Shown here piece after piece: positions 22,370 through 26,341 of a stretch of DNA of 34,080 nt. How positions within the stretch are numbered: the first letter of the stretch is position 1; each line of letters opens with the position of its first letter. Source of the stretch: a virus (Duplodnaviria; Heunggongvirae; Uroviricota; Caudoviricetes); IMG/VR virus record IMGVR_UViG_648276671_000020, positions 1 to 34,080 of that record; one strand, given 5' to 3'. The position numbers and the translations under genes were made by a program. The notes under the pieces were generated by a model. That model saw nothing but the letters and a program-made list of their open reading frames with translations, made no database searches and was not told the origin of the DNA.

Positions 22370-22897
22370 ATGCAGCATTTGATAAATATAACGGCAGGTA
22401 ATCCAAAAACGGTTGAACAATATCAATTGACAAAGGACTTTGATGTTGTCTGGTTTTTTTCAGAAGATGGTAAGAACTGGTACGAAGAACAAAAGTATTT
22501 TGCTGATGACACGATAAAAATAGCGTACGACAAAGATAATATCATCCGCTATGTGGAAAAGGATGTGACAGCTATCAGACCAGATGGATTAAGTGTGGTT
22601 GAAGTGGCGGATATTACTGCTAACCGACGGGCGGATATTTCAGGGAACTGGATGTTTAAGGACGGCAAAGTGATTAAACGCATTTATACGGCAGAGGAAT
22701 TGCAGCAGCAGGCAGAAAACCGGAAAGCCAGACTTCTTGCAGATGCTGAATCCGTAATTTTGCCGCTGGAACGCGCTGTCAGGCTGAATATGGCGACGGA
22801 TGAGGAGCGCACACGACTGGAAGCATGGGAACTCTACAGCGTTCTGGTCAGTCGTGTGGATCCTGCAAATCCCGAATGGCCGGAAATGCCACAATAA
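22370..22897 (+). CDS. G: Tail fiber assembly chaperone
   Basis: 175 aa immediately after H, the size and position of P2 gpG. Confidence 0.85.
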
Positions 22898-22931: not shown

Positions 22932-22973
22932 TGGCACAGAGTAAAGCCTGATCTGACAGTCCGCTCTGTGCCA
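22932..22973. repeat. 10-bp perfect inverted repeat (TGGCACAGAG ... CTCTGTGCCA) with 22-nt loop
   Basis: Seen directly, about 35 bp after the G stop. No T-run, so not a canonical intrinsic terminator. Confidence 0.4.
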
Positions 22974-23272
22974 AGATCGGACCTTAGGCTTCAGTAATTT
23001 GGTTAGCACAACCCCTTTGATAAACATACAGCTACAGTATTGCTTTTATAAGGAGCGTAGTTTCAATAGGACACCCCAAACGTTAGTCGGGAAAAGCCGA
23101 CTGAAAAAAAACTTGTGTGGACAAGTAGTGTCCATTTAATGCCATTTTTAGATTAAAATGTGCCATTTTGAGGGTATTCTTAAACGTGCATAACGTTCTG
23201 ATTTATCATACACAGAGCCTTATCATTTGAAACCATTCCGATGTACATCAAACAATGATTACAAGAGAAATT

Positions 23273-24790
23273 ATGACACCGCCAACCAAAATTGATACAT
23301 CAAGTCTACTTACCATATTGGGCGTTATTGCTGCTGTATGGGCCCTTATTACGCCAAACGCTCGACTACGTTTAAGGTTCTGCCTAGCGTGGTGGGATTG
23401 GGTAATTGTTGGGTTTGCATTCTTACTAAGCAATTATTTGGTGTTTGCACCGGCTTTAAAATCACTAGACTTATATTTTAGCTTTGGCCCCTGGAAATGG
23501 GGATTAGATAGTTCAAGTGCCGTATACCTGATATCACTCGCAGTTGCTATTTACATTTTATTTCGCTTAAAAAACCCTAAACTCTCAATTGGAAGAACAG
23601 GGATATTTCTAGAGTTAGTGGAAAATTTGCACCTTACTAAACGATACGACGATCTGGCACAATTGTTGGCACCTCAACTAGAAAAATTAATATCAATAAT
23701 TGATAGACCTGTGAAGAATCGACTTTGTGATAAGATAGCTAACAATCTCCGCATCTCTAATCGCGAGACAGCTGCTGAACATGCACATGAAGCATTGTTA
23801 AATATTGTCTCATCACCTGAACTTACCAATCACTTTGCACTTGCGCACCCATCCCTCTGCCTTGAGTTAATCAAGATCGAGCCAATAGTTCGTTCTGACT
23901 TTACTTCTAATTTTATCAGTGCATTACTTGGTTCACCTAACAGTCGTCTATATGTTGAGCTTAAAAATAATCTTAACGTTAGTCGAGGACATCGTTTATT
24001 GATTCCAAAAAACAACCGTATATTACATTTTTTCTTTTCCAATGCTAAGTTTGCAGCTGATTTAGCAATATACCGTGATATCGGTGACTATCTCTACTGG
24101 AGGTTAGATGAAGATGAAAAAATTATTGCTGCACTTAATAAGTCTTTAGGTTCCTATTACGATGCTTCAAAATATAAATGTCCTATTTACTCAGGTGTCA
24201 CGCTGTTTGAAATTATGGTTCATGAAGGTATTCACCAGGGTCTTCAGGATCATTTATGGTTGCATTACTATTCATATTTTGCAAGGAAAATTATAAAGAA
24301 TATGAATAGGCAATCGGATGAATATAGTGGTGAATGGGAAACACCTTTTCACTTCCTTCTCTGTCATTTATTTAGCGTCGCTACAGATTGGGCAGAACAA
24401 TGCGAATGGATAGATGAAAAGGAGATTCCTCAAGAAAATAAAGAAATAGATAATTTCGATCTTCATTATATTTCAAAAGAGGCTACCAAATTACTTGGTG
24501 CTATGCTGCAGTTGGTTATGCCTAATAAAAAACTCACCTTGAAATCTAAAAAACATATTCTTGATATAGTTGTATCTTGTTATATTAGATTGAAAAGGAA
24601 TAAAAAATTAAAAGACGTCGCTGACTCATTATTAATTTTCACCACTAGAGGCGAAGGTAATTCAGCACCGCCGCATTATCGTAGAGAACTTCTAGAAATA
24701 TTCAATACCCTTGATGATTATCGATTAAGAACTGATGCCCCGGAATTCCGAGCAGCTATAGAGTCTGCTATTCAAGCAAGGCCGAATTAG
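23273..24790 (+). CDS. Membrane-anchored protein, function unknown (3 N-terminal TM helices plus large soluble domain)
   Basis: Track ORF 23255..24790; ATG at 23273 is an alternative start. Hydrophobic segments near residues 15-33, 43-66 and 85-103, then about 400 aa I cannot place in any family. AT-rich; sits at the P2 Z/fun cargo locus. Confidence 0.65.
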   Translation: MTPPTKIDTSSLLTILGVIAAVWALITPNARLRLRFCLAWWDWVIVGFAFLLSNYLVFAPALKSLDLYFSFGPWKWGLDSSSAVYLISLAVAIYILFRLKNPKLSIGRTGIFLELVENLHLTKRYDDLAQLLAPQLEKLISIIDRPVKNRLCDKIANNLRISNRETAAEHAHEALLNIVSSPELTNHFALAHPSLCLELIKIEPIVRSDFTSNFISALLGSPNSRLYVELKNNLNVSRGHRLLIPKNNRILHFFFSNAKFAADLAIYRDIGDYLYWRLDEDEKIIAALNKSLGSYYDASKYKCPIYSGVTLFEIMVHEGIHQGLQDHLWLHYYSYFARKIIKNMNRQSDEYSGEWETPFHFLLCHLFSVATDWAEQCEWIDEKEIPQENKEIDNFDLHYISKEATKLLGAMLQLVMPNKKLTLKSKKHILDIVVSCYIRLKRNKKLKDVADSLLIFTTRGEGNSAPPHYRRELLEIFNTLDDYRLRTDAPEFRAAIESAIQARPN

Positions 24791-25064
24791 GTAAATCAAC
24801 CACCTGCATAGCGGGTGGTTTAGACATAGACCTCTAAGCATGCCTGAAAGCAGAGGTACCTCTAAGTTTCGATGTCTAGGTGTTGATCGGCTGTAATCTG
24901 GTAACCAGGTCAAGCTTAAAATTTTCTCAACATAAACAAGTAGTATTTCAAATATTGAACCATACTGACTCCCCCACTTTTTATAAGATTATGGAAATTT
25001 TTTGTACCAGTAAGTTCGAAAATTAGTGTTGTTCTCATCAGTCGTTATGAATAATTTTGAACTT

Positions 25065-25128
25065 CCGCTCCTCGCTCACAGCGGACCCTCAACTCAGCCA
25101 GCAATGTCCGCTGCTTGCCAGGAGCGGA
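25065..25128. other. Nested stem-loop between convergent cargo genes
   Basis: Outer arms TCCGCTCC/GGAGCGGA and inner arms CAGCGGAC/GTCCGCTG, each 8 bp, separated by 7-nt internal loops with a 20-nt apical loop. GC-rich inside an AT-rich island. Confidence 0.4.
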
Positions 25129-25165
25129 CGTAGTTTAATCTCTACTATGTTAATAAGTAATGATA

Positions 25166-25918
25166 TTAAATAAACTCATCATCAAGAAAGCCTGTTGATA
25201 AAAAGTTCTGAATGTGAAGATAAAAAGAATAACGTGTATCTTCATTTTTTTTCTTCGATGTGTTGAGTTCCGGCTTGAGATTGTAAATAAGATGAGACTC
25301 TATAAAGTCAAGTAATTCTATAGCTAATGATGTCGGACTAATCCAATCCAGTGAAATATAGTCTTTTCCATCATAAAACCATGGGGTGGCTCTATATATC
25401 CTCTTTTTCATATTATTATATTTGGGATCTAGCAACTTTAAGGCAGCCGAGTGACCGCCAATAAACCTTTTGGAGTTAACGGTTTTTCCGACATAAACAA
25501 TGTGTTCATTGGTATCATCCATATCAGAGCATGATATTAAATAGATTGGTAATGAGGGTTTGGGAGGAATGCCGATTTTTTTTTCGATTATCACCCTCTC
25601 CTTTTCATGAATAAAAATGGGAAGCTTTCCATTAAATTCACTCTTCACATTCCCCAAGAATGAATCTGTATTTTTCCTAGCTTCATGCAGTCCGACCCAG
25701 TTAAGACTATTGACCTGATGGAGAGGACAGCATTCCTGTATTGATAACCAAGCCTCCCAATCACTTGATGGATTATCACTACAGTTTTGGCCCGAAAATC
25801 TGTGTGAAAGGAATTTTCTCCCCTCGAACCAGGCTTGCAACGGAATATATATATCTGAAGTGTTCTGCTCGACTTCAATTAATGGACTATTAGTATCCAA
25901 ATTTATGCCTCCTTTCAT
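25166..25918 (-). CDS. Hypothetical protein with a C-terminal GIY-YIG-like nuclease motif
   Basis: 250 aa. PIYLISCSDMDDTNEHIVYVGKTVNSKRF resembles the GIY-X(10-15)-YVGK..KR core of GIY-YIG domains (compare UvrC VIYVGKAKDLKKR as I recall it). GGAGG-type RBS before the ATG; AT-rich. Confidence 0.55.
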   Translation of the reverse strand: MKGGINLDTNSPLIEVEQNTSDIYIPLQAWFEGRKFLSHRFSGQNCSDNPSSDWEAWLSIQECCPLHQVNSLNWVGLHEARKNTDSFLGNVKSEFNGKLPIFIHEKERVIIEKKIGIPPKPSLPIYLISCSDMDDTNEHIVYVGKTVNSKRFIGGHSAALKLLDPKYNNMKKRIYRATPWFYDGKDYISLDWISPTSLAIELLDFIESHLIYNLKPELNTSKKKNEDTRYSFYLHIQNFLSTGFLDDEFI

Positions 25919-26218
25919 TAAGTATTTGCATAAAAATATCTAAAAATAAGAAATTCTTTAATTAAGATTATAAGTTAAATATAAGTACCAATGAAGCTTT
26001 GAATGATTTCGCATCAATAAATTAATTCTAACACAATACCATATAATAACGAAAAATGTCACTGCTTGGTCGTTGAGGATATGACATTGCAATTAAAGAG
26101 AAAACCTTAACACACTATCTATAACGTCCGTTTCTCGCTCAAAGCAGACTGTCAGATTTGATAGCATTTGGGCTATGTAAATTGTCAGGCGGAAAATGAG
26201 TGAGTACAAATCAGGACA

Positions 26219-26245
26219 GGCGGGCGAATTGCCCGCCTTTTCTTT
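26219..26245 (+). terminator. Intrinsic terminator upstream of the FI late promoter region
   Basis: Hairpin GGCGGGC-GAATT-GCCCGCC followed by TTTTCTTT on the plus strand. Confidence 0.45.
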
Positions 26246-26341
26246 ATCTGTTGTTTCATCCACTGACCAGCCAGGTCAAATAGCGTCTCATGCTCTGCAC
26301 AACAGAAAATAGTTGCACCCATTAACCACGGAGTTAAACGG

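Follow-up and report, generated by a model that had tools for sequence, protein, structure and literature searches.

Paired inverted sites at a cassette seam in a P2-like prophage: a candidate system for site-specific cassette exchange

Introduction

A long, GC-rich stem-loop lies between two convergent genes in the cargo region of a P2-like prophage, and its position raises the question of what such a structure does at the border of two pieces of cargo, and whether it does so as RNA or as DNA. The prophage is contained in record IMGVR_UViG_648276671_000020, which was analysed over its whole length of 34,080 nucleotides (nt), referred to here as the window, and all coordinates are those of the window. 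Its cargo region extends between a tail-fibre-assembly gene (22370–22897) and the tail-sheath gene (26342–27532), and the element in question, at 25064–25128, is located inside a 375-nt gap that separates the two cargo open reading frames (ORFs).

The element is the seam of two separately acquired cassettes and is composed of one site of each of two types, named A and B in the following. Judging from sequence comparison, and with a probability of roughly 60%, A and B would be double-stranded, site-specific recombination sites for the exchange of cassettes, on which a recombinase of only 200 amino acids (aa) would act in trans.

Anatomy of the element

An earlier note on this DNA, made from the letters alone, had described two consecutive, perfect 8-base-pair (bp) stems nested in one another from position 25065 on. 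Both stems are present, with a 1-nt offset, the outer left arm beginning at 25064. The four arms are TCCGCTCC (25064–25071), CAGCGGAC (25079–25086), GTCCGCTG (25106–25113), and GGAGCGGA (25121–25128). They enclose the two internal loops of 7 nt that the note had listed (25072–25078 and 25114–25120), and the terminal loop of the nested fold has 19 nt. The contrast with an AT-rich surrounding also holds, the G+C content being 64% in the element and 35% in the rest of the gap. Folded as RNA, the plus strand is predicted to reach −38.2 kcal/mol, compared with −19.7 ± 2.9 kcal/mol for its shuffles (z −6.3), and the minus strand −44.8 kcal/mol (z −6.5); on either strand, none of 200 shuffles folded as well.

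What had gone unnoticed is that a single 7-mer makes up all four arms, reading GTCCGCT in one arm and AGCGGAC, its complement, in the next. The arms can therefore pair in two equivalent ways, of which the nested fold is one; in the other, the same letters form two side-by-side palindromes of 24 bp, GTCCGCT-N10-AGCGGAC, whose starts are 43 bp apart. The 64-nt hairpin is the consequence of two inverted DNA sites adjoining one another with 19 nt in between, and not a free-standing RNA hairpin.

Allowing up to two mismatches, such palindromes occur at four places in the window (starting at 22959, 25063, 25106, and 26126), against a chance expectation of 0.11, and all four are cargo boundaries. A fifth match to the pattern, GTCCGCTTATGAGGCGGTGGGGAC at 30015–30038, has two arm mismatches and neither type of centre, lies in coding sequence, and is probably due to chance. 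The cargo region, which occupies the G/FI (fun(Z)) hotspot of P2, thus reads B–cassette 1–A·B–cassette 2–A, in the following parts:

22947–22958, plus strand: outer extension CCTGATCTGACA of the left-boundary site, conserved, and mirrored on the far side of the terminal A site
22959–22982, plus strand: B-type site standing alone, GTCCGCT CTGTGCCAAG ATCGGAC, marking the left-hand limit of the cargo directly after the tail-fibre-assembly gene
22983–25062, plus strand: cassette 1, with a 511-aa ORF at 23255–24790 (plus) and its own small hairpin at 24798–24820
25063–25086, plus strand: A-type site, TTCCGCT CCTCGCTCAC AGCGGAC, first half of the element, with the centre TCGCTCA
25087–25105, plus strand: 19-nt linker CCTCAACTCAGCCAGCAAT; in the family, the linker consensus is CTTCAGCTCAGT with 7 variable nt
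25106–25129, plus strand: B-type site, GTCCGCT GCTTGCCAGG AGCGGAC, second half of the element, an inverted, diverged copy of A
25130–26125, minus strand: cassette 2, with a 250-aa ORF at 25166–25918 (minus)
26126–26149, plus strand: decayed A-type site standing alone, GTCCGTT TCTCGCTCAA AGCAGAC, marking the right-hand limit of the cargo, before the sheath operon's terminator and promoter
26150–26161, plus strand: outer extension TGTCAGATTTGA, conserved, the mirror image of 22947–22958
26218–26248, plus strand: intrinsic terminator of the upstream tail operon, before the tail-sheath promoter; it lies outside the element and defines the empty site

The B site at 25106 has the centre TTGCCA, one mismatch more with respect to the GTGCCA of the family. 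The B site at the left edge is kept at the equivalent place in P2 and in phage 899, and it is there that the homology of cassette 1 ends in two islands (L002 and L004). The same 11–12 nt or so that extend it outwards are found upstream of the first B site in P2-like phages and in unrelated islands of Escherichia coli (L004, L007, and L008).

As a separate observation on this edge, the sequence TGGCACAGAG (22932–22941), 27 nt 5′ of the left B site, is the exact reverse complement of its centre CTCTGTGCCA (22965–22974). The complementarity is also kept in P2 and phage 899, and TGGCACAGAG may be a decayed inverted site or provide an alternative pairing.

A family of polar sites

The same structure was sought at cargo boundaries elsewhere, a check that the earlier note had proposed, and it is present in phage 899, in P2, and in more than 120 viral contigs. 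Phage 899, which is identical to Yersinia phage GMG73, has the order B … A·B … A at the same hotspot, with two entirely different genes inside. In P2, a B site after gene G and a decayed A site before pF, which are inverted copies of each other, enclose fun(Z). Inverted repeats thus bracket the variable gene or genes between the tail genes G and FI in P2, in the window, and in phage 899.

Beyond phages, an 85-nt stretch holding the element matches 866 of 5426 E. coli genomes, at 1–3 places each, and 1021 plasmids, chiefly of Klebsiella, Enterobacter, and Pantoea. Viral stretches with the exact A-type pattern number more than 120, as do genome stretches with it (also more than 120); they cover the Enterobacterales, and a few further hits fall in Idiomarina and on one Pseudomonas plasmid. 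The genome stretches, which are 8 kb long, contain 1–3 site copies each.

Two consensus sequences describe the family, for which 645 sites in 252 loci were scored. A sites read (AAC)GTCCGCT-YYTCGCTCAY-AGCGGAC, usually followed by CTTCAGCTCAGT, and B sites read GTCCGCT-NNGTGCCARG-AGCGGAC, with (G/A)TTG as the usual next letters. B is an inverted A, its centre on the other strand being TGGCAC as compared with the TCGCTC of A, a difference of two transversions, and for this reason the two centres oppose C·C and T·T when they meet in one strand of the long hairpin. With inverted arms of 7 bp (up to 9 bp in many B copies) around asymmetric centres, TCGCTC(A) and GTGCCA, both types have the layout of simple core sites of tyrosine recombinases, in which inverted binding arms stand on either side of an asymmetric centre of 6–8 bp. 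In doublets, the start of A is most commonly separated from that of B by 42 bp (44 cases), followed by 40 bp (17) and 43 bp (5), and the median interval from a B site to an A site is 1.7 kb.

Anatomy, distribution, and polarity of the sites are matters of direct observation, as are the positions of the breakpoints and the linkage to a recombinase gene that are described below. The polarity is strict: 95% of the neighbouring sites within a locus are co-oriented, and still 93% when doublets are left aside. An IncFII plasmid of Lelliottia carries about 19 sites in 40 kb, all of them on one strand. The genes in between do not follow this order, since the longest ORFs of 154 distinct cassettes are divided 91:61 between the two directions relative to the sites. 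The contents are very diverse, with 97 Pfam families in 127 cassettes, and no transposase, including the Y1/RAYT type, is among the 25 families listed as most frequent in them.

In lambdoid-type contigs, an A site also marks a variable stretch of cargo within the nin-like region. In L035 (about 4600–8500, with A at 5992) and many other viral loci, A followed by a conserved TAGAAGGTTAGCTTG forms the right edge of a variable cargo of NUDIX/HAD genes, located upstream of HNH (phrog_96) and RusA genes. This is therefore a second phage hotspot with these sites.

Junctions within the sites

The boundaries of homology between relatives of the window coincide with the sites. About 70 E. coli genomes have cassette 1, together with its B and A sites and without cassette 2, beside other genes in an island that is not a phage, and the homology between this island and the window goes no further than 25087, halfway through the hairpin. 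Cassette 2 is present in only six E. coli genomes, each time in this prophage. On the right side, the homology of about 1000 P2-like prophages resumes at 26116–26137, at or inside the right-hand A site. The doublet of phage 899, including its “variable” linker, is conserved with 93–98% identity in about 480 E. coli genomes, in which there is no homology of the flanks, so the interval from the A centre to the B centre moves as a unit, which is consistent with crossovers at both centres.

The point of joining can be narrowed down further by comparing all pairs of distinct A sites according to the relatedness of their flanks and scoring the identity at each position of the site:

Left flank the same, right flank unrelated (n = 29): identity of 96%, 93%, and 82% at positions 1, 8, and 9; 27% at position 17
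Right flank the same, left flank unrelated (n = 233): 63%, 44%, and 42% at positions 1, 8, and 9; 90% at position 17
Both flanks unrelated, background (n = 40,693): 56%, 40%, and 44% at positions 1, 8, and 9; 28% at position 17

Positions 8 and 9 go with the left flank and position 17 goes with the right one, which places the join in the invariant centre, between 9 and 17. The same pattern is seen in B sites. These comparisons may be regarded as strong circumstantial evidence for recombination at the centres, short of proof.

A recombinase linked to the sites

The only gene that is consistently linked to the sites, int, encodes the 200-aa protein, which contains only the catalytic domain of the Phage_integrase family of Pfam (residues 34–184), whose HxxR, H, and Y motifs align with those of XerD, and which has a conserved VRY motif in its C-terminal part. 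The protein is 96% identical between an island of E. coli CFT073 (WP_001305361.1) and the Lelliottia plasmid, and int is also carried on plasmids of Pantoea. In CFT073 (L007), on the Lelliottia plasmid (L005), and in two loci from the genome scan, L170 (Erwinia sp. S63) and L226, int is placed precisely between two sites, one A-like and one B-like, in the slot that the 19-nt linker normally fills. In both the A-like site upstream of it and the B-like site downstream, the centre and the outer arm are intact, and the inner arm has degenerated. The orientation of int agrees with the polarity of the sites in the nine loci inspected, and remnants of it are found in four further loci.

The association extends to more distant hosts. 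A B-like site also follows int in contigs of Idiomarina, Proteus, and the Cycloclasticus type, and the B-like site is kept, as a hairpin and GCGCCAGAAGCGGTC, after a homologue in Agrobacterium that is 53% identical. As for frequency, int is present in 5 of 120 genome stretches of 8 kb that had been picked only for an exact A site; its density in E. coli is about 0.035 copies per Mb, so that the stretches are enriched in int by a rough factor of more than 100. In E. coli as a whole, the 701-nt int unit occurs in 904 of the 5426 genomes, in several contexts.

The family of the 200-aa protein is very large, with 76–96% identity across orders, and it has no specific name. The protein matches no NCBIfam equivalog. 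It scores 15.9 bits with the integron-integrase model TIGR02249 (integrase_gron; cutoff 265), matches models of Fim-type invertases weakly (25 bits; cutoff 222), and stays far under the cutoffs of the XerC and XerD models.

Several int loci have features of their own. At about 3300–3345 of L007, and also in L005, L170, and L226, the start of int lies within a perfect 12-bp hairpin, ACTCAAATCTCC-N8-GGAGATTTGAGT, which holds the Shine–Dalgarno sequence and abuts the ATG; its sequence suggests that int may be under tight translational control. In E. coli AR435 (L269, 2990–3240), an internally deleted int is located between intact A-like and B-like sites, beside a SMODS/SLATT (CBASS-like) gene pair, and is an int unit decaying in place. 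On the chromosome of Idiomarina sp. X4 (L254, 10001–17534), next to gcvP, a core gene is followed by int, a B-like site, 7 kb of cargo, and a perfect A site. The cargo, composed of genes for a histidine kinase, a response regulator, an EptA-like phosphoethanolamine transferase, PAP2, DAGK, and a sulfatase, is a module of the lipid-A-modification type in the form of a single large cassette. In Proteus mirabilis (L256–L259, about 7900–11400), int, a decayed B-like site, a GNAT cassette, and A sites are found in the polymorphic mutS–rpoS region.

A model of cassette exchange

In the proposed mechanism, the recombination would be enzymatic and site-specific, and the 200-aa protein would be the enzyme. 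Strand exchange would take place in the 6–7-bp centre of a site and would be conservative. Each type of site would recombine with its own kind (A × A, B × B), and A × B would be disfavoured by the two-base heterology of the centres. A segment running from B to A could thus be replaced by a double exchange, or excised and inserted via one type of site, between any replicons that bear the sites, be they phages, plasmids, or islands. For the sites of the window, the enzyme would have to be supplied in trans, because the window has no copy of int. The model accounts for the B … A brackets at the hotspots, the A·B doublets, the strict polarity, the breakpoints in the centres, and the cassettes that phages, plasmids, and islands have in common.

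A number of observations weigh against it. Apart from the lack of int in the window itself, the element is on roughly 1021 plasmids and a close homologue of the integrase on only about 112, and the protein must therefore act in trans or have acted in the past. Conversely, homologues of int on a Pseudomonas plasmid (60% identity) and on a Photobacterium plasmid (48%) have no recognisable site beside them. With respect to the breakpoints, the compared pairs are not phylogenetically independent, the left linkage is weaker in B sites (55 and 67%), and recombination by short homology would likewise put the junctions within the sites, these being the sole 24 bp that are shared. Pairs of loci that differ by one precisely inserted cassette were sought, and none was present in the sample, nor was any recombination event observed.

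The history of the hotspot also poses a difficulty. In phage 186 and in the cargo-free P2-like prophages of E. coli that were examined, there is no palindrome, the stop codon being followed directly by the terminator, and the occupied P2-like prophages have about 61 and 66 nt of extra flanking sequence. The first entry into the P2 lineage was therefore not an integration into a pre-existing site. A simple attB × attP history, with the empty site as attB, is ruled out by the same palindrome-free prophages and phage 186.

Alternative explanations

It could be argued that the sites are passive boundary repeats of a REP/BIME/REPIN- or MITE-like kind that were spread in some other way, that the mosaicism arises by ordinary or phage-encoded recombination at short homologies, and that int merely targets the repeats or hitchhikes with them. 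Inverted doublets that can form a long hairpin out of short, GC-rich extragenic palindromes, with singletons as decayed doublets, are indeed typical of REPs, BIMEs, and REPINs (which are mobilised by RAYT transposases of the Y1 HUH type). Lone decayed copies are common among the present sites as well, most loci are without int, and, as mentioned, any exchange based on homology would put its junctions in the only sequence shared. Still, this explanation is unlikely. The sites are of low copy and confined to accessory DNA: in E. coli, 16% of the genomes have them, at 1–3 detectable places each, and a high-copy genome was not encountered among the 120 genome stretches. A co-orientation of 93–95% over tens of kb is unexpected for independent insertions, int occupies one fixed slot in one orientation, and no Y1 or RAYT gene is among the families reported from the cassettes. 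Moreover, the linkage of positions 8 and 9 as opposed to 17 indicates junctions in the centre of the palindrome and not just anywhere in the repeat. As to the classical REP, BIME, or REPIN classes, which are species-specific and reach tens to hundreds of extragenic copies in a chromosome, they are ruled out by the copy number (866 of the 5426 E. coli genomes, as given above) and by the spread over many genera.

A second possibility retains the recombinase and changes its substrate. As in an integron, the doublet would fold into one single-stranded, attC-like site (arm–centre–arm with fixed mismatches), on which the enzyme would act during conjugation, phage replication, or lagging-strand synthesis. 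The nested fold does bring an outer and an inner arm together with a centre that is partly paired (7 of 10 consensus pairs, with conserved pyrimidine–pyrimidine oppositions); many copies are flanked by AAC … GTT; and nested compensatory changes slightly exceed tandem ones, by about 16 to 7 events. Resemblances to integrons go further, since in both cases co-oriented, imperfect palindromes separate diverse cassettes of one or a few genes, a tyrosine recombinase is encoded beside the primary site, and the junctions are hybrid sites. A folded substrate is nonetheless distinctly unlikely, because lone A or B sites are equally good as junctions, which fall in the centre of short sites of the double-strand type. 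In integrons, a single type of attC with 57–141 nt is repeated, whereas here two types of 24 bp alternate. The flanks, TTTGAAC … GTAGTTT in the window and often AAC … GTTG in the family, do not fit RYYYAAC/GTTRRRY in their 7-mers, and the core motif of integrons is thus absent. The enzyme has no core-binding domain, and its score is the one already given, far from the cutoff for integron integrases. Finally, the genes have no common orientation, and the cassettes are often 1–6 kb long, with their own regulators. An attC site in the strict sense is ruled out by the core motifs, the integrase model, and the gene orientation.

Very improbable, in turn, is an element that works at the level of RNA, such as a bidirectional stabiliser of 3′ ends, a Rho-independent-like pause, or part of a small RNA, which the earlier note had considered in part. 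Both strands are predicted to fold very stably, the position between convergent genes in the window would suit such a role, and REP hairpins, which stabilise upstream mRNA, offer a precedent. Yet the note itself had seen that a textbook terminator is not present, and rightly so, there being no T-run and no call of the terminator scan at 25063–25129. Among the covariance models of Rfam, none overlaps the element at E ≤ 10. The 104 distinct doublets contain 219 arm substitutions, of which about 80% are uncompensated under either scheme of pairing, and in the extended stem the C·C and T·T oppositions are conserved. Cassette 1 already has the hairpin at 24798–24820. The genes run either way relative to the sites, and some sites are located upstream of genes, beside promoters, as is the case before pF. 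Taken together, conserved loops, uncompensated arms, the equivalence of lone sites, and a polarity that is independent of the genes indicate that selection acts on the sequence of a DNA site and not on an RNA helix, so that the proposals of an RNA-stability element or a small RNA receive no support. The hairpin may have a secondary effect on transcripts. A protein-binding palindrome, the remaining option of the note, was rightly included.

That these palindromes are operators, bound in pairs by a transcription factor (a dimer or tetramer) by which acquired cargo is silenced or insulated, is scarcely credible: they are intergenic, conserved, and 43 bp (about four helical turns) apart, but the sole gene linked to them is a recombinase and no regulator gene accompanies them consistently, they coincide with breakpoints of homology, and many are situated at 3′ ends, distant from promoters.

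Relation to known systems

Exchange of cassettes between paired double-stranded sites, the explanation preferred here, has several counterparts. In engineered cassette exchange, heterospecific lox or FRT sites with shared arms and incompatible spacers permit the clean replacement of a segment by double reciprocal recombination. By analogy, A and B, two site variants with common arms and differing centres that flank a segment, would constitute a natural arrangement of this sort.

The pdif modules of Acinetobacter are accessory modules flanked by short, inverted XerC/XerD sites of alternating orientation, which move between replicons and encode no transposase. The present cassettes are likewise bounded by short, inverted, alternating sites, shared between replicons, and without a transposase among their most frequent families, and differ in their hosts, which are phages, plasmids, and islands of Enterobacterales, and in having a dedicated, mobile mini-recombinase instead of the chromosomal XerCD. 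The sites are not of the 11-6-11 dif type either, whose consensus is GGTGCGCATAA-TGTATA-TTATGTTAAAT. A dif-like site of XerC/XerD was rejected on account of the dissimilar sequence and of a linked recombinase that scores far below the XerC and XerD cutoffs.

The invertases FimB and FimE are comparable in size (about 200 aa), in consisting of essentially the catalytic domain only, and in using short inverted repeats. In contrast to them, the 200-aa protein scores far below the cutoffs of the family, the sites are different, and the putative role is exchange between replicons as opposed to a local switch. Ends of IS200/IS605 elements (PATE), which are placed on one strand and at a set distance outside subterminal hairpins, are ruled out, as are those of other HUH transposons, since here the joins fall within the palindromes and A is inverted relative to B.

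Inverted repeats that flank fun in P2 had been described in 2004, with the proposal of a site-specific exchange between phage and bacteria (Nilsson, Karlsson & Haggård-Ljungquist, 2004, Mol Biol Evol 21:1, as cited in PMC8987985). The locus is the same, with an inverted pair around fun(Z), and since P2 fun is bracketed by B and A, the sites of P2 and of the window are almost certainly these repeats. The element of the window would thus belong, on sequence grounds, to a kind that was first noticed then. As summarised in PMC8987985, the proposal of 2004 comprises neither two types of site nor A·B doublets, plasmid arrays, or a recombinase. The literature search, which had the original paper outside its scope, yielded no account of these four features; six exact site sequences used as queries retrieved no paper; and, beyond the 2004 citation, nothing was found in the literature searched that describes integron-like or palindromic cassettes in Enterobacterales or P2.

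The cargo of the window

Neither of the two cargo proteins, of 511 and 250 aa, has a match in Pfam, NCBIfam, or PADLOC; they are assigned to PHROGs 13820 and 16890, the function of which is not known. The larger one has an apparent N-terminal membrane anchor. Directly 3′ of its ORF is the hairpin at 24798–24820, AACCACCTGC-ATA-GCGGGTGGTT, which goes with cassette 1 into the island copies and is probably a 3′ structure belonging to this gene. As they sit in a known defence hotspot, both proteins are candidate anti-phage genes.

Implications for cargo exchange

The hotspots of P2 and P4 phages are major reservoirs of anti-phage systems. Their cargo is swapped very fast, also with plasmids and cryptic islands, by a mechanism that the survey of these hotspots lists as unknown (NAR 2026, PMC13586616). 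Sites of the recombination type at every cassette edge, in exactly those types of element, together with a linked and widespread mini-recombinase, offer a concrete candidate answer to how the cargo is exchanged. In practical terms, the sites could be used as a marker that delimits cargo cassettes and helps to find new defence genes, such as those for the two unannotated proteins of the window, and a natural pair of heterospecific sites could also serve engineering.

More tentatively, the sites and the 200-aa recombinase may together represent a previously uncharacterised, integron-like exchange system, in which double-strand sites of two heterospecific types alternate and a mobile enzyme of minimal size acts in trans, a possibility to be taken seriously though not yet to be favoured. 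If true, this would be the missing mechanism that shuttles defence and other accessory genes among the hotspots of P2-type and lambdoid phages, plasmids, and cryptic islands, and its scope would cover the Enterobacterales and some marine Gammaproteobacteria.

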